Origin: an uncultured delta proteobacterium
GTDB lineage: Bacteria; Desulfobacterota; Desulfobacteria; Desulfobacterales; JAHEIW01
Direction of reading: 5' to 3'
DNA: 64,000 nt
Assembly: GCA_963706575.1 (NCBI GenBank)
Contig: CAVPNL010000003.1
Span: 1-64,000 of the forward strand
Part shown: positions 4,341 through 45,632 of the stretch, piece by piece
How the letters are laid out: each line of letters begins with the position of its first letter
Position numbering within the stretch: position 1 is the stretch's first letter
Made by a program: the position numbers and the translations under genes
Notes under the pieces: generated by a model
What the model was told of the DNA's origin: nothing
Databases searched by the model: none
The model's input: the letters and a program-made list of their open reading frames with translations, nothing else

Positions 4341-4898
4341 TCAGGGAACAACAATTACATCTCCGGCTTTAAGAATAATGTTCTGCTCAAGATTATGACC
4401 TTTCTCAACATCTCCATAATCAAACGGTATTTTGATAATCGTATTATCCTTTTGCCTGAGTATTTTGATACTGCCCTTCGAGGCAAATGGATTTAACCCT
4501 TCTGCCTTAGCAAGTATCTGCATTACGGTGGTATCCATATTTATGGTAAATTCGCCCGGTTTGTTTACTTTGCCAATTACGAATGCCTTTAAACTGTTAA
4601 TCTCTAATATTATAACGGTTACCGTAGCTTCGGGCACAAACTCGGAAAGTTTCTGCGTTACAATTTTTTTCAAAGCTTCAACCGTCAGATTAGTAACTTT
4701 GATAGGTTCGATGAGAGGAAATGAGATAATACCATCAGGGGGTACCACCAGTTGCCTGCTTAAATCAGGATCTTTCCATACAGAAATCTCAAGAACATCT
4801 CCCGAGCCGATATGATATTTTTTTTCAGCCGCCAGGCCACTGGAGTTTGAAAATATTATAACTATACAAAGAAACAGACCGCAGGCAAAATTTTTCAT
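4341..4898 (-). CDS. wza: Polysaccharide export protein (Poly_export + SLBB; short Wza/OPX type)
   Basis: YHIGSGDVLEISVW, PDGIISFPLI, VIGKVNKPG and LKAGDVIVVP motifs. Confidence 0.92.
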   Translation of the reverse strand: MKNFACGLFLCIVIIFSNSSGLAAEKKYHIGSGDVLEISVWKDPDLSRQLVVPPDGIISFPLIEPIKVTNLTVEALKKIVTQKLSEFVPEATVTVIILEINSLKAFVIGKVNKPGEFTINMDTTVMQILAKAEGLNPFASKGSIKILRQKDNTIIKIPFDYGDVEKGHNLEQNIILKAGDVIVVP

Positions 4899-5308
4899 CT
4901 AAAGCTCCTTTGTTTAAATGTACAGGTAGTCTGTAATAAGTGTTGAGATCTTGAATCTTGGATAATCGAAAATCAAGATGAGGCTTTTGGTGCTAATCCT
5001 GATTGTTTGCAACAATAAAGTAAAATGACAATTACCAATAATTCAGACCCGGACATTGAGAAGAAAAATCGGTGTTTCTCATCGTTATGACGTACCGATT
5101 TCACTCACCTCGAATCGAAACTAAAAATCCAATTATCAAGTGAACATGAAGATACGATAATCTATCAAAAGGGTAATCCTGAATACGAAGCTTACCAAAT
5201 TGTTCACCACAGCCCCCCGAAATTGCGCAGGAATATTTGGCTGGCCTCCTTTTTTTTACTAAAATTTAAGACTTGCAATGAGAAACAAACTTCAACTAGG
5301 TTGTATAT

Positions 5309-5324
5309 TGCAAATTGCATGCCG
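5309..5324 (-). promoter_or_regulatory. Sigma-54 (-24/-12) promoter upstream of the wza operon
   Basis: Minus strand reads CGGCATGCAATTTGCA (GG-N10-GC), close to the TGGCAC-N5-TTGC consensus. Confidence 0.75.
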
Positions 5325-5475
5325 GGTAAGAATCTAACACTTTTTGATGACTTTGATGAAAAAAAACCAATCAGAAATGTAATAATTATAAATGTTTTCA
5401 TCTATTTATTTAATATATGAAAATTGGGTCTAAAATGGGATTTCATTGGATTTAAACTAATTAAATGTGAAAAAT

Positions 5476-5513
5476 GGTAAATAATTGCCCAATAATATGT
5501 AAATAATTTCACA
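5476..5513. promoter_or_regulatory. Tandem enhancer-like boxes for a sigma-54 activator
   Basis: GGTAAATAATTGCCCA (5476) and TGTAAATAATTTCACA (5498), starts 22 bp apart; TGT-N10-ACA type. Confidence 0.55.
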
Positions 5514-18347: not shown

Positions 18348-19810
18348 TTATTTTTGAGGTTCTTCTACTTTTTTCGCACTTCTTAAAAATGGAGGATCCA
18401 ATCTTTTATGAAGTTCATTATCAAATTCCCTTGTAAGGCTAAAAATCCATTCTTCGAGATTACTGTATCCATTATTGTCATCATCTAAATTGTGATTTTG
18501 AGGCAAAGCTATTTTGCGATTAGCAACCTTGAGGATTGGCCATCCCCCAACATCGTTTTGGCTATCGATCCAGTTTCCAGTTGTGTCCTTGAAATCTTTC
18601 AAAATTCGGGTATCGACAGAATCACGATTATGTGGCCTGGCACCAACATTGTCGAGCAAGTATGCCTTTATGTTTTTACTGCTCATAATTTTTATTTTGG
18701 ATATCGGAACGGGTGAGTTGGAGCTAAAAAGTGACTTTTCGGATAGTCCTGTTAAGTTTCTTACAGATGCCATTGGATCATCGGGATTGTAATTTTTGCA
18801 GTAGTTATCATCAACAAAAAAACTGCTAAATCGGTGGATTGAATCTTTTTCGATTTCAATCGCCCAGTCCGCATATTTATGAGAGTTTTTTCCCGGGATC
18901 GCATAATTGCCAATAAGACTTCCCAAAATTGGGGCTTTTCCTGAATCCGACGGATGAATATTTTCAGCATATGCGTTGTAGATACCATTGTTAATCACAT
19001 GCACCGATGATCCGGGAGCTTATTAAAGGGTTTCTTCCCTGATTATGAACCAGAAGATTCCTAAGTATCGAAATATTCTGGCCTCTAACAAGCATTCCCA
19101 TCCCATGTCGGCCATTGCTATGCAAACTATAATTTAATGCTTCAGATATAAGTGTATTGCTTACCGTAGCGTTATATACCCTGTTACTATAAACATTGTC
19201 ATAAATCTGTATATTTTCATCAATTGACCAACTTACCGAACAATGATCGATGACAATATTATAAGTATCTCCATTGGGACCATCGTTGATGGCTATTCCA
19301 TCGCGGTTATCAGGCTTCACGCCGTCTTTGTCACCGGGACGAATTCTAAGATGCTGAATAATAACATCATGCGTCATTACGCTGAGTGTGCATCCCTTCA
19401 ATGTAATACCGGGTGAAGGTGCTGTTTGCCCGTAAATTGCAGTGTACGGGTGATCAACTCCAAGATAATCATTTATGGGAATCATCCCAGAAACTTCAAA
19501 TATCACTATCTTACCACGGTCGCCATCCGTCTTAATTTTCGGATTTGAAATTTATTAATGCCTTTAATGACCCTGTTTTAACTTTGGTTCCATTCCTTGT
19601 ACTATCTTGAGGTCCGATAATTTCGCCGGAAATAGTTGTGACGATACAAATTATCGGCTTATTCGGAGCTCCGTATGCTGCTCGGGTATCAGTACCAAAT
19701 CCTTGGGCATCTGGAAAAACGGGTAAAGCAAATGAAAATCCATGTGTACTAACGAGTAAAATTATTTCAAAAATCAATATATGTAGGAAGCGTTTTGCAG
19801 CAAATCTCAT
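18348..19810 (-). CDS. Secreted pectate-lyase (PL1)-family beta-helix protein (two frameshifts)
   Basis: Signal peptide followed by ALPVFPDAQGFG, VIFEVSG, IYGQTAPSPGI, IDHCSVSWSIDE, RNP, VGARP and DDDNNGYSNLEEW, spread over three ORFs. Confidence 0.85.
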
Positions 19811-22935: not shown

Positions 22936-23871
22936 TCAGGCCCTTTTGGTTGAAGTACCTTTTGAAATCTTAATTTTTTCGTAAACTTTAACAGTTCCAA
23001 TAAATGCATATACAATTAAATATTGAATTTTTTGTTTTCCCCCGCGAAATTTTTCCGACGGTGGTAACCCTATAATAAATCTTCTTATTAATCCTATAAT
23101 TGCCCCGATAAGTCTTTTTAAATCCTTAACTAAATCTTTAAACAAGTATTTTTCTGTTTGGTTTAAATCCCAAATTCCTCCTACGACTCGCTTTGTTTTT
23201 CTAAAAATTTGTTTGAAAGAATTACGCGCAGGATGCAATACACAAGTATCTTCGGAATAGATTTGTGTGTATCCAGCAGATTTTACTCTTCTGCCCCATT
23301 CGACATCACCGCCTGATTTCAATTTTTGATTAAAGAGTCCGATATTTTCAATAACCGTTTTAAAAGTAAAAAGATTTGCAGTTACACCAAAATCATATCT
23401 TTCAATTCTTGTTTTTTGTGGAAAAGCATTGATTTTTTCATAAACTTCAACCGTAGTTAATTTGTCTTTATTTTTAAAAAAAAGTTTGATTTTCCCTGAA
23501 AGAAGGCCGCAATTTGTAATAGTTAGCATTTTTGAAACACCCTTTTCAATCCAATCTGGAAAAGGGATACAGTCAGAATCAGTAAAAGCGATGATCTCAC
23601 CTTTTGAAAAGGAGATTCCCTTGTTCCTTGCAGCATATGAACCCGGTTGCATTTGATGAGTTAAAACGGTGTTTCTATATTGATTAACTAATTTATCAAT
23701 TTTTTTATCTGAATCATTATCTACAACTATGATTTCATAACTATTTTTTGGATAGCTTTGTTTTTCAAGTGCATCGAGACAAAATTTTAAGTTCCTTAAA
23801 TCATTATATACTGGAACAATAACGGATACAAAAGGATCGGTTTTTAAATTTTTACTTTTTTTTTCCATCAA
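22936..23871 (-). CDS. Glycosyltransferase family 2
   Basis: SVIVPVYN, GSYAARN, AFTDSDC and SGGDVE motifs. Confidence 0.92.
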   Translation of the reverse strand: MMEKKSKNLKTDPFVSVIVPVYNDLRNLKFCLDALEKQSYPKNSYEIIVVDNDSDKKIDKLVNQYRNTVLTHQMQPGSYAARNKGISFSKGEIIAFTDSDCIPFPDWIEKGVSKMLTITNCGLLSGKIKLFFKNKDKLTTVEVYEKINAFPQKTRIERYDFGVTANLFTFKTVIENIGLFNQKLKSGGDVEWGRRVKSAGYTQIYSEDTCVLHPARNSFKQIFRKTKRVVGGIWDLNQTEKYLFKDLVKDLKRLIGAIIGLIRRFIIGLPPSEKFRGGKQKIQYLIVYAFIGTVKVYEKIKISKGTSTKRA

Positions 23872-37185: not shown

Positions 37186-39778
37186 TTAGGGCAATACATC
37201 TAACGCATCGATGGCAACAAGGTTTCCCTTTGATTCGGAATTTTTTCTTCCGCTGACCTCTATCATAACAGTATGCGGCGATGGAGATAACCCATCAATT
37301 CGATATAGGGGTAACATTGTCAATCTATCCCGACTGTACTGATCCACGTCAGCGATGAATTCACCATCAATAAAAATCTTGCTGATTCCCAGATCCGGTG
37401 CTTTTGGCCCGATCAAAACAATACTCCTTCCGATAAAACTAAGACTGGCCTTGTCTGAGATCGTATCCGATATACTTACAGTTGAGGCGCTATAATCATC
37501 ACTTTTAACAATTTTCCAGTTACCCTGGTATTGAAAAATCTCTCTATTGTTTTCATATCTGAAAGGCCTATTATTTAGCATTTTCCAATTATTTCCATTG
37601 GTATTCGAAATAAACAAGCTTTCTTCAGACGCAATCAAAATGATTTTATCTTTTTTATAATTATTTGAAAATTCAATCCATCGTATTTCTTGCTGATGAA
37701 TTATTGAGTCCGGTGCGATCTTCTTGAAACTATTGCCTGCATCCATGCTTCGAAACACGCCTTTACCCCTAATGCTGATGATTATGGTGCGATCTTTTGC
37801 AAAATTTGGAGAAATCGCCAAGCCCATTATATAGCCATTTCCACCAGAGCCGCATACATCTAATTCTGTCCAATATTCGCCACCATTCGTGCTTTTATAT
37901 AATCCTTCAGAGCTCCCTGCAAATAGTGTTTTGTCGATTTTAAATCCAGGGGATATATCGATAAACGTATCATTTATTCTAGTCGCTGAATATTTTGGAT
38001 AATCTTGCCATTTTAAAATATAATTCAGACCATAGTTGCTGGGGATCCAGATGTCACCACCATCAATGGTCTTGTAAATGCCCTTTCCGCGGATGCTGCA
38101 AAACAATGTTTTATCGGACTGATAATTAGGTGAAATGGCTAAGGAAGTAATGGTGCGATTTTCTTTTCCTTTCCAAAGTGATCTGAACTTTTTGCCTCTA
38201 TCATTGGACACATAAAGTCCATCTGACCTTGTACCGAAGAATAAAATTCCATCGTTAGAGTAACTGGGAGATAGCTTGATTACAGTGGGATATGGTCTTG
38301 ACCGATAAGAGTCGCTAGATAGTTTTGTCCGGATGAAGTTCCCAAATCTTTTTAGCATTTTGGATTCATGTGTTTTTTTTTGGATATAATGATCTATACT
38401 TTCCTTCCAGCTTTTGGTTACAATTTGATTCAGGTTCCAATTTTTACCTTGATCTGTCGACGCAATAATACAATTTTTATAAGCAGCGAACGTCGTATTG
38501 TCGGAGGCAAAATCAGGTGAAAAAGTAATATCAGTCAATCGGGTTTTCCTTAATCCTTTATTCCTTGTATTCCATGTATTGCCTTGATCTTCTGAAAAAT
38601 ATATACCGCCTCCATATGTAATAACTCCGATAGATATTTTATTTTTGCGGTTGGAGTTTATGGAAATCCCTTTTATCGCTTTCAGCGGGAAGGTTTCCAG
38701 CTGAATCCAGCTCTTACCATTATTGGAACTTTTAAATAAACCGTCAAAGCCTCCTAAAAATAGGGATTTATCTTTGCTAAAATTATTTGATAGTCTTATA
38801 TCTCTAAAGTGTGGGGATTTATAGTAGCTCGAATCAGCTTGACTATCTGAAGAAAGTCCATTTTCAATTTTATGCCAATCTGTCCCGCCATTTTTAGTAT
38901 AGAAAACAGCTTCGTACCAGGTAGATGCGAAAACTGTATTATTTTGTTTCGGGTCATTGGAAATCGCCAGACTTCTAATATTGGCGTCGATCGGGAGTCC
39001 ACTGATTTGTTGATACAAATTGGTTGCCCCCGTCGGTGGATTTAAAAACTCCATTTTTCTCAGTTCCGATGTACACTGTTCCATTAATGGAATAGTTGGG
39101 AGAAAAAGCGATAGAATTTATCGCACCCCATTTTAAATCGTGTTGGAGAAGGCGCCAGGTATCACCCAAATCTTTTGAAACATATAGATAGCCAGTGGAA
39201 CTGCCTGCCATGATCAAATGGCTTTCGTTGTTGTGATATACAGCAATTGCCGAAATCAAAATTTCCCCCAGAACTTTTCTCCAATTCTTCCCATTATTTG
39301 AAGTTCTGTATACCCCCCCCTTGCTGCTTGCAGCCAATACAAATTCATCGCCTTCGGAATGAAAGATTGACAATAGATTAATATTTAGATTTTCAAAACC
39401 ACGGTTAGCTTTATTCCATGAAACGCCACCATCTTCTGAGCGGTAAACACCGTCGCCATCCGAAGATATATAAAGTGTCTTGTTTTTTTCATATAAAGGC
39501 GAGATGGCAATTGATGAAAACGGATATCTATTGTCCAATCCGTTAACCAATTTTTCCCAACTATGACCTCCATCGGTAGATTTTTTTAAAAGGTCGAGCA
39601 TGGAAATGAAAATCGTTTGGTCTTTTGAAAAAACAGGTGATATTTCAACTACTTCGATAACGTCATGGGGAGAATGTGCTTCGCTATTTTCAGAATTGAA
39701 CAAGAATGTTCCGAATAACAGGATGGACAAGATAATTGGGAAGTAATGACTTTTTAACTTATTTATTAAATTTTCCAT
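37186..39778 (-). CDS. Secreted BNR/Asp-box beta-propeller protein (YCF48/VPS10/GH74-like) with C-terminal beta-sandwich (frameshift near 39045)
   Basis: Signal peptide ending AEA, and many S-x-D-G-G-x-x-W repeats alternating with ISPxF/Y motifs. Confidence 0.85.
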
Positions 39779-43649: not shown

Positions 43650-44417
43650 TTATAATCCATTTTCTTGTTGATTAACGTGCTTTTCGATAGCAGATTTCCA
43701 AACCAAATAGCCTTGACCGTTTAAATGCAGACCATCAAATTCAGTATATTCTTCCCTGAGTTGATGACTATTATCACTCATTACAGTTATCAGATCTATA
43801 TATGTAAAGTCATGTTCAGAACTCAATCTTCTTAAATGGCTGTTGAGTTCTATTACGTCTTCGTTTAAAATATTACCTTTGTACAATTTATAGTTTAACG
43901 GTAGAACACTATGGACATAGATCTCTGTTTTCGGCGTCTTTGAATGTATGTATTCAATCATTTTTTCATAGTTGGAAATAATTTCAAATACAGTTTTTTT
44001 GTAACCTAAATCATTTATTCCCACCATAATAAATATTTTAGCAGGCATGGAAGAAACAATTTCTTCTAGTCTATCCAGTACTCCATCTACTGTATCTGCC
44101 CTTAAACCTCGATTTTTTATGTTCAAATTTTGAAATAATTCACTCCAATTGCAATGATCAATTAAACTGTCGCCTAAAAAAATAATTTCATTTTGCGTGT
44201 TTGGTAATAATTCATATAGACTCTTTTTCTGATAATAGTAAGGCTTATGTACTTTATTTTTCTTTATAGGTGCTGCAAACATCGAAATGATTCTTTTTTT
44301 TATGAAGGGAATACCACCTTTTTTGACTACGACATAACCGGCGAAGGTGATAAAAAGCAGGTTGAGAGCAATGGAGAGAACGAGGATTTTTTTATGCCAA
44401 TGGAATTCGCTTTTCAT
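43650..44417 (-). CDS. Membrane-anchored SGNH/GDSL esterase
   Basis: N-terminal TM helix; FLGDSL, NRG, GINDL and DGLH motifs. Confidence 0.9.
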   Translation of the reverse strand: MKSEFHWHKKILVLSIALNLLFITFAGYVVVKKGGIPFIKKRIISMFAAPIKKNKVHKPYYYQKKSLYELLPNTQNEIIFLGDSLIDHCNWSELFQNLNIKNRGLRADTVDGVLDRLEEIVSSMPAKIFIMVGINDLGYKKTVFEIISNYEKMIEYIHSKTPKTEIYVHSVLPLNYKLYKGNILNEDVIELNSHLRRLSSEHDFTYIDLITVMSDNSHQLREEYTEFDGLHLNGQGYLVWKSAIEKHVNQQENGL

Positions 44418-45117
44418 TTTAGAGGGCCGAAATTAATTTGGTTGATATTAAAAGATTTTCAGAAAGAGCTTTAAAATAAATGCTTTACAGCAATATAGAA
44501 TATAGCTCCGCTTTCTCAGTTACAGGTAGCCTCCTGTCCTGACAAATCCAGCTTTTCCGAATTAGCGTTTTCCTGGACTGAAACCACTTGAATCTTCATG
44601 ATCAAACAACAGTTCAGGGCATTTCTATGGCAAAATCAAAACTGCAAAGCAGTGTCCCGAACCAGTATAAGCGCATCGGCAATGGTCAGATTATCTGTCC
44701 TATCCTTGCTTTCTTATTTATTGTTACGAATCAGAAAATACGGGGTTACATGCAGGAGGCTGTTTGTGATTCCCTTATAAAGGACTTGGTAACCCATGGG
44801 ATGTCAAATCACCGGTAGATAAATTCAACGAGCTGCCAGTTCAAGGTTGTGTTTTGACGCAACCGAGTCAAAATAAAGATAGTGGCGAAGAGACTGTCAT
44901 TCATGCAGGAGTGTTTCATTAATCAGTCGAAAAATCAATTTTTGAACGAAAATCCCAATCCCCCCGGATTGTTTAGTTGCGATCACGCTTTGACGAACTA
45001 TTAGTGGCCTTGTTTTGGCAGGGCCTCCTTTTTTTTGGATCATGCTTGCTGGCAGAATACCATCAGTCCTTGGCTTCAGGAAGATGATTCTCTGCCGCAG
45101 TATTCAAGCTGGTTAGA

Positions 45118-45133
45118 AGCAATTATGGTGCCA
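45118..45133 (-). promoter_or_regulatory. Sigma-54 promoter at the head of the polysaccharide locus
   Basis: Minus strand reads TGGCACCATAATTGCT, matching TGGCAC-N5-TTGC. Confidence 0.85.
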
Positions 45134-45330: not shown

Positions 45331-45368
45331 GGTAAAATTTTTCACATTAATGTGTAATTCATTTCCTA
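45331..45368. promoter_or_regulatory. Tandem enhancer-like boxes for a sigma-54 activator
   Basis: GGTAAAATTTTTCACA (45331) and TGTAATTCATTTCCTA (45353), starts 22 bp apart as at 5476/5498. Confidence 0.55.
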
Positions 45369-45555: not shown

Positions 45556-45632
45556 CGGGACGTGGCTCAGTCTGGTAGAGCACAGCGTTCGGGACGCTGG
45601 GGTCGGTGGTTCAAATCCACTCGTCCCGACCA
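45556..45632 (+). tRNA. tRNA-Pro (anticodon CGG)
   Basis: Cloverleaf with acceptor stem CGGGACG/CGTCCCG, anticodon arm CAGCG-TTCGGGA-CGCTG, T-loop GGTTCAAATCC and encoded CCA. Confidence 0.97.

Follow-up and report, generated by a model that had tools for sequence, protein, structure and literature searches.

The window, positions 1–64,000 of contig C3 and the whole 64,000-nucleotide stretch that was analysed, belongs to a 5.67-Mb genome that is 91.8% complete. A polysaccharide cluster of about 40 kb and low GC content (0.29–0.43) occupies its minus strand from position 44417 to the left end of the window and adjoins a tRNA-Pro gene at 45556. This tRNA-Pro(CGG) gene (45556–45632, plus strand) stands at the edge of the low-GC cluster and might mark an integration site. 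The first gene of the cluster encodes a GDSL-like acylhydrolase (43650–44417, minus strand), and its annotated start lacks a Shine-Dalgarno (SD) sequence (−2.6 kcal/mol). The export genes lie at 4898–412 in the order wza–(outer-membrane protein)–wzc–tyrosine kinase and match families associated with XrtA/PEP-CTERM. Among them, only the chain-length determinant passes the cut-off of its own model, and the kinase passes the general EPS kinase model. The wza-type polysaccharide export protein (4341–4898, minus strand) is most similar to TIGR03027, below its cut-off, and no close wza relatives were found among the 24 same-family genomes searched. Two further minus-strand genes of the window, one pectate-lyase-like (18348–19506) and one glycosylhydrolase-like (37186–39778), are each made up of two overlapping open reading frames (ORFs), possibly as a result of a frameshift or an assembly error.

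The export operon is preceded by a predicted 5′ leader of 400 nt (4899–5298, minus strand), the start of which is placed at 5298 from the −12 position of a sigma-54-type −24/−12 motif (5309–5324). This motif is the best-conserved part of the region. A probable activator (enhancer) box with TTTACA lies about 180 nt upstream of the promoter (5475–5513) and is found at an equal distance in four of 19 orthologues with the pattern used; one enhancer-box search pattern was stricter than the box itself and missed the box of the genome's own promoter. Short matches to the activator-like box (window 5469–5513) occur on several unrelated contigs in DNA runs. Contigs from four DNA runs include a close relative that spans the export leader. 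Within the leader, block 1 (5236–5257) reads A8-GGAGG-CCAGCCAAA and resembles an SD sequence that has no start codon after it; its pairing with the tail of the genome's own 16S rRNA amounts to −12.1 kcal/mol. Block 2 (5213–5225), a run of six G residues, follows 31 nt after block 1 and pairs at −9.5 kcal/mol. Both surpass the true wza SD (4905–4911, −8.1 kcal/mol). A small hairpin at 4921–4935 contains block 3, a 9-mer at 4921–4929 shared with the second leader described below, and the GGAGCT that follows it is the wza SD. A further strong match to the 16S tail at about 5104–5115 (minus strand, −11.8 kcal/mol) is not kept in orthologues.

The second leader precedes the first gene of the cluster and is built of similar parts. 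A probable activator box (45331–45360) is located 225 nt upstream of a sigma-54-type −24/−12 motif (45118–45133), from which the start of transcription is predicted at 45107. Directly after it comes a strong RNA hairpin (45051–45096, z −4.0), known from this one leader; it could be a 5′ stabiliser or an attenuator. Copies of block 1 (45014–45036, −11.8 kcal/mol) and block 2 (44960–44971, −12.1 kcal/mol) follow, 63 nt apart, with an additional tail-complementary word between them (44981–44991). The block 3 9-mer (44521–44529) is part of a predicted nascent-RNA hairpin (44516–44542, z −1.96), a candidate pause hairpin immediately upstream of the ops-like site, and overlaps an opsX-like element, TGTAA-N8-GCGGAGCTATA (44501–44524), which is the only copy in the genome; 84 nt separate it from the gene that opens the 40-kb cluster. 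The earlier note, which described three blocks shared by the two leaders, had the coordinates of all of them exactly right, and their common order on the minus (mRNA) strand and their location downstream of sigma-54-type sites also hold. The opsX-like element was absent from that note.

The combination of a TTTACA-type box with a sigma-54 motif is found at only three sites in the genome, all of which carry blocks 1 and 2. The third is on contig C2 and was not part of the earlier note. It belongs to a second polysaccharide cluster (C2:19728–20735), in which a wza paralogue (C2:20178, 72% identical) is preceded by a sigma-54 motif like those of the window and by both blocks. The chain-length gene of this second cluster is split into two overlapping ORFs (C2:22119–23006 and 22969–23871). 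The upstream parts of these promoters resemble the PEP-CTERM box of Haft et al. 2006 (PMC1569441), where a TTTACA box is likewise found upstream of −24/−12 in polysaccharide loci of the XrtA/PEP-CTERM type. Unlike the spacer of 32–92 nt given in that paper, the spacer here is about 150–200 nt, and the account in PMC1569441 describes nothing downstream of the promoter. Membership in that regulon was rejected: the box is too far upstream (about 180–225 nt), and no PrsR above the cut-off was found in the genome (best TIGR02915 score 428 vs 502.6).

The three blocks do not stand equally. The 15-nt exact match of block 1 between the two leaders is attained in 0.1% of 1000 shuffled leader pairs, the score of the best local alignment of the leaders (34) exceeds those of 2000 out of 2000 shuffles, and AAAAAGGAGG followed within 20–60 nt by CGGGGGG occurs genome-wide only in the two window leaders. 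A matrix trained on 15 metagenomic wza leaders alone, and then run on the 5.67-Mb genome, returns the locus-head leader (35.9 bits), the C2 leader (35.7 bits) and the export leader (32.9 bits) as its top three sites; the next distinct site scores 24.1 bits. That fourth-best site (C2:9337–9389) is located within a coding sequence of the second cluster, at its 3′ end, and the next gene follows at a distance of about 140 nt; the site could be due to chance or be an internal stabiliser. For block 3 the outcome is the opposite: a 9-mer match of this kind is common to 77.6% of shuffled leader pairs, the exact 9-mer occurs ten times in the genome, and it is found exactly in none of 22 orthologous wza leaders and with one mismatch in one of the 22. 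The hairpin at 4921 is ordinary (z −0.76). Block 3 in the export leader is a chance match, and only in the locus-head leader does it overlap the opsX-like site. Of the three shared ordered blocks that had been proposed, the first survives both the shuffles and the comparison with orthologues, the second is confirmed by its conservation in orthologues, and the third drops out.

The orthologous wza leaders, the collection of which the earlier note had recommended, come from a metagenome search with the Wza protein that yielded 80 loci, 37 of which (at least 56% identity) were examined. Twenty-five of these (L093–L116 and L129) gave 22 leaders after the removal of a duplicate (L096), a locus with unrelated upstream DNA (L104) and a truncated one (L113). 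Both blocks are present in 16 of the 22 leaders (15 by the two-block pattern and L099 by eye), block 1 alone in four and block 2 alone in two; these leaders are kin, perhaps of eight lineages, so the counts overstate the conservation. The remaining 12 loci (L117–L128, one with just 36 nt upstream) lack the two blocks. Six of them could be placed in the tree, and all six fall outside the clade, supported at 95/96, that contains all carriers. The identity of the export leader to its orthologues is 0.95 in the promoter, 0.70 and 0.58 in block 1, 0.54 in block 2 and 0.68 in the true SD; elsewhere it is 0–0.42, and block 3 (0.23–0.33) is within that range. Blocks 1 and 2 have the consensus A-run-GGRG-N-CC followed by a G-run. 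The core AA-GG-R-G is invariant, and its lone variable position is either A or G. The GGAG and GGGG forms alternate in at least three wza subclades and are interleaved in the tree (GGG replaces GGA in L094, L098, L101, L102, L107, L108, L110 and L112). Two loci with identical Wza proteins, L094 and L095, have clearly different leaders, with GGGG and GGAG block 1, respectively, which suggests leader exchange. In the locus-head leader, the blocks are known from one copy, without orthologues.

Nothing convincing was found outside this wza clade. A sequence-only model of the two blocks, R1, gives weak matches, with best E-values of 9e-4 (149 other genomes of the order) and 0.002 (24 genomes of the family); it misses the locus-head copy due to the longer spacer there. 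The strict two-block pattern occurs in four of 400 other genomes of the phylum, not above the reversed control. A match on a viral contig was discarded as a terminator-like hairpin, and the matches of a loose block pattern in 201 genomes were discarded as ordinary SD sites. Blocks 1 and 2 are a real conserved element, limited to one uncultured wza clade.

The blocks remain recognisable where the surrounding leader has diverged past alignment and the Wza proteins are just 66–75% identical. This persistence is difficult to reconcile with the idea that the blocks have no function and are left over from a duplicated promoter region or from the ribosome-binding site of a lost small gene. Block 1 does look like an ordinary ribosome-binding region of the genome minus the start codon, each block has been lost in some leaders, and the locus-head copy could stem from a duplication; such an explanation of the blocks is nevertheless very unlikely. 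Their spacing varies by single bases between 26 and 37 nt (63 nt in the locus-head leader), and they are located 69–201 nt from the promoter and 133–542 nt from the start codon. The freely varying distances to promoter and start codon argue against a promoter or initiation element. They also weigh, together with the varying spacing, against blocks 1 and 2 being bound as DNA, downstream of the sigma-54 promoter, by a regulator that acts as a downstream activator, a repressor or a roadblock: there is no helical phasing and no dyad symmetry, and the orientation is constant. The presence of the blocks at three of the three box-plus-sigma-54 promoters of the genome, and the possibility of reading them as a loose purine-rich direct repeat, speak for such DNA sites, which we nonetheless regard as quite improbable.

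No shared RNA fold was found for the blocks. The earlier note had suggested a search of Rfam and a covariance test. The former returns one tRNA at gathering score and otherwise, by E-value, chance-level matches, and in the latter the alignment of blocks 1 and 2 has zero consensus pairs, so neither led to a family or a supported structure. The folds of the whole leaders are unremarkable (z −0.77 and −0.89), and local folds around the blocks have z values mostly near 0 and are no better than shuffles in nearly all leaders. A candidate 6-bp hairpin was rejected because it was no better than column shuffles (129–364 of 500). In one subclade (L103, L106, L111 and L129), pairing is possible between block 1 and a tract of pyrimidines that follows block 2, with an inner stem of 5 bp retained. 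The suggestion that this is an undescribed cis-regulatory leader remains apt for blocks 1 and 2, which are conserved and not in Rfam, and block 3 is no part of it.

Block 1 had been described as a strong SD without a start codon, and the orthologues bear this out: ATG, GTG or TTG occurs 3–12 nt after block 1 in none of 19 leaders vs 35% of background windows. A start codon does follow block 2 in eight of 21 leaders, at differing, non-conserved places, and a leader peptide was ruled out as there is no conserved start codon. In the L103, L106, L111 and L129 subclade only, a CTG stands at SD distance (by eye), with a 16-codon frame in three of the four.

The proposal that block 1 is a CsrA-type GGA site did not withstand the comparison. 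CsrA/RsmA sites have an invariant GGA, usually in a hairpin loop. The window copies do contain GGA, and an extra GGAGG in a hairpin is found in several orthologous leaders, but in several lineages the GGA of block 1 has become GGG, there is no hairpin around block 1 of the kind a CsrA-type site would have, and a csrA search, with a control that matched in three of 14 genomes, found none in this 92%-complete genome. This reading is largely refuted and we consider it extremely improbable. The extra motif is hairpin-like, lies upstream of block 1 with GGAGG in or beside the loop, and represents a third site complementary to the 16S tail; it is present in L097, L103, L105, L106, L107, L108, L109, L111, L112, L116 and L129 and absent from the window leader.

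What the blocks do match is ribosomal RNA. The core AA-GG-R-G is complementary to the end of the genome's own 16S rRNA, and the variable purine faces a U. Sites that pair with the 16S tail at −8 kcal/mol or better number 73 in the 22 leaders vs 43 in shuffles, a test that is partly circular, since G-rich words in general will pair with that tail. Where the G-run is lacking, in four leaders, AAAGTGATC takes its place at an equal distance (36 nt in L107), and this word also pairs with the tail (−12.1 kcal/mol in L107 and −9.4 kcal/mol in L112). The pairing is not maximised: the GGGG variants of block 1 reach just −7.2 to −8.6 kcal/mol, and the base that faces the next C of the tail is G in a minority of leaders. 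The predicted unpaired fraction of the blocks (about 0.36 and 0.34) does not exceed the leader average (0.40–0.49), and the genome has many orphan AAAAGGAG words, 64 of them outside long ORFs. A-to-G changes are also the most frequent substitutions in general. Pairing to 16S rRNA leaves two features unexplained, the conserved CC..CCAAA that follows block 1 and the invariant AA.

These flanks would be accounted for if the blocks, as single-stranded RNA, were bound by a trans-acting partner that controls the three leaders jointly, either an sRNA whose seeds are rich in C/U, in line with the sRNA landing pad of the earlier note, or an RNA-binding protein. Conserved sequence without structure and the free position within the leader agree with such a site, and the A/G swap fits pairing to the U of any RNA. 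On the other side, neither Hfq nor CsrA was found in the 92%-complete genome and there is no candidate partner, and the replacement of the G-run by another 16S-complementary word in the L107 group is explained more easily via the 16S tail. We therefore see an sRNA or protein site as somewhat unlikely. Complementarity to 16S rRNA, the lack of a start codon, the replacement word AAAGTGATC and the presence of RNase J, which the genome encodes (587 bits vs a cut-off of 400), are together the basis for reading the blocks as an mRNA-stabilising tandem pair of orphan SD sites. This is the reading we favour, tentatively and at a little under an even chance: blocks 1 and 2 may be tandem orphan SD sites, STAB-SD-like and limited to one wza clade. 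In such a mechanism, 30S subunits would bind blocks 1 and 2 close to where the long leaders, probably driven by sigma-54, begin. Given the size of the 30S footprint, the usual block spacing would allow two subunits, and these may sit side by side on the blocks. The docked 30S would then shield the polysaccharide mRNA from 5′-to-3′ decay by RNase J. The sequences themselves show that the blocks are conserved, confined to three promoter-leader units that look like one regulon, complementary to the 16S tail, without a start codon after block 1 and without a common fold, in a genome with RNase J; from these we infer the start of transcription, the binding of 30S, the two adjacent subunits and the stabilising effect.

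STAB-SD resembles an SD sequence but initiates no translation; it is bound by 30S and stops RNase J1, as described in PMC4113751 for Bacillus thuringiensis cry3A after Agaisse and Lereclus 1996 and Mathy et al. 2007. The present blocks share several of the properties described there: they are SD-like, lie in a long 5′ leader at least 100 nt before the start codon, can pair with the 16S 3′ end within a 5′ UTR (as delimited by the predicted start site), and appear, from the lack of a start codon, to initiate no translation at block 1; the cell also has RNase J. According to PMC3997798, delta-proteobacteria often have RNases E/G, J and Y. Unlike the cry3A element as described, there are two tandem sites here, in Gram-negative Desulfobacterales and behind sigma-54-type polysaccharide promoters, the pairing is weaker and partly wobble, and the sites are known from sequence.

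The opsX-like site of the locus-head leader is of a different kind and far more widespread. The word GCGGAGCTATA is found beside block 3 in this leader and also upstream of two distant wza genes. Among 30 loci that contain it, the intergenic ones often share TGTAA eight bases upstream. In a collection of species genomes, exact TGTAA-N8-GCGGAGCTATA occurs in at least 120 stretches, and among the matches listed 111 sites were kept and nine, judged coding or unrelated, were left out. One position that the query left open is A in 98% of these 111 sites. The 80 named records among the matches listed include 41 with Desulfobacterales-level names and eight Acidobacteriota; Desulfosarcina and Desulfatibacillum are among the cultured genera with the exact site. 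The named records that have this motif in common with the window's genome suggest that the latter belongs to Desulfobacterales. Of 63 ORFs downstream of exact sites among the matches listed, 61 were scanned; 29 of the 61 belong to families of polysaccharide synthesis or export and eight are NusG-domain proteins. In Acidobacteriota loci L181, L182, L190, L194, L206, L218, L245 and L280, the site lies directly before, or overlaps, the start of a NusG-paralogue gene. One stretch of 3.2 kb in another genome (G168:C1:7762056–7765268) contains four ops-like sites, three of which are about 155 nt apart.

The genome encodes a stand-alone NusG paralogue of the UpxY family (C4:182880–183407), with a UpxY score of 135.5 (cut-off 100) and a score of 103.9 with the RfaH model, under the cut-off of 144.5. 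Its neighbour gene is one that we take to be IHF/HU-like. A looser ops-like pattern is found in 71 of 151 genomes of the order (six with the reversed control), and UpxY is above the cut-off in 120 of the 151. An ops-like site is present in 66 of the 120 genomes with UpxY vs five of the 31 without (Fisher p 1e-4, a value inflated by kinship and incomplete genomes). One 94%-complete genome (G063) has two ops-like sites and no UpxY match. Upstream stems that score at least 7 accompany 29 of the 111 sites among the matches listed vs 8.8 (maximum 20) in shuffles and 16.6 (maximum 23) in swaps; there is no excess at the lowest threshold, and most of these sites have no such stem. A DNA fold program gives no stable fold for the ops-like 12-mer alone.

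Saba et al. 2024 (PMC11685472) describe opsX as a site of roughly 40 bp in which the non-template strand has GCG-AGC hairpin stems and which is preceded by a pause hairpin. Positions 44501–44524 hold a 12-nt element with a GCG-N-AGC core and a conserved upstream segment, in the leader of a polysaccharide operon and in a genome with an associated NusG paralogue; as in class 1 of the UpxY/opsX systems of Bacteroides fragilis (PMC11685472), the sites lie in polysaccharide-operon leaders and the protein is of the UpxY family. An upstream RNA hairpin is predicted at a minority of the sites. Unlike the operon-specific variants described for B. fragilis, one near-invariant sequence is found across Desulfobacterales, Acidobacteriota and others, and the factor is here a single stand-alone gene. 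In that respect the system resembles RfaH and ops (PMC7593976, PMC7819879), in which a stand-alone NusG paralogue also acts in trans on a 12-nt leader element; the acylhydrolase gene without an SD fits the ribosome-loading role described for RfaH (PMC7593976). In contrast to RfaH and ops as described there, the protein scores as UpxY, and the site is extended upstream by TGTAA-N3-A and comes with a predicted RNA hairpin. From these likenesses we judge it quite probable that RNA polymerase pauses at 44501–44524, as at an opsX site, and there takes up the stand-alone NusG paralogue of the UpxY family for the 40-kb cluster.

An antitermination signal was one of the roles proposed for the shared blocks in the earlier note. 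A candidate for it does exist, but it is confined to the locus-head leader and is a different element from the blocks that the two leaders share. Could blocks 1 and 2 themselves serve an antitermination complex (UpxY, Nus factors), by pausing transcription or as its loading point, in leaders without an ops-like site? The operons are long, both Rho and UpxY are encoded in the genome, and the ops-like element is found in none of 24 wza leaders with up to two mismatches. However, the order has a clear and different candidate site for UpxY, there are no strong terminators in the leaders, and UpxY is order-wide, whereas the blocks are clade-limited. Among 74 ops-like loci with enough upstream DNA, a sigma-54 motif is present in three and the block pattern in none, which also indicates that the ops-like site and blocks 1 and 2 are independent. 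Such a loading role for the blocks is in our view very doubtful. A broader scheme would combine the two elements and treat the leaders as loading platforms, with tandem 30S subunits on blocks 1 and 2 protecting hundreds of untranslated nucleotides against RNase J and Rho, and, in the 40-kb cluster, with the opsX-like pause loading UpxY, which would pass a ribosome on to the SD-less first gene; as a whole, this is on balance unlikely.

Long polysaccharide operons require messages that are stable and transcription that is processive. Should blocks 1 and 2 be 30S docks, protection of the STAB-SD type, described in Gram-positives, would have a tandem counterpart in a Gram-negative lineage that encodes RNase J. 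As the blocks are confined to a single uncultured wza clade, this finding carries limited weight. No description of blocks 1 and 2 or of the ops-like site in this group was found in the open-access literature, the opsX figures and supplements of Saba et al. aside. The ops-like site matters more widely. Reviews state that it is not known how most specialised NusG paralogues are recruited; here, a short sequence may predict the target operons of a factor that is encoded in most of the genomes of the order. If the assignment is true, a recognition site for a NusG paralogue present in most Desulfobacterales would be at hand.
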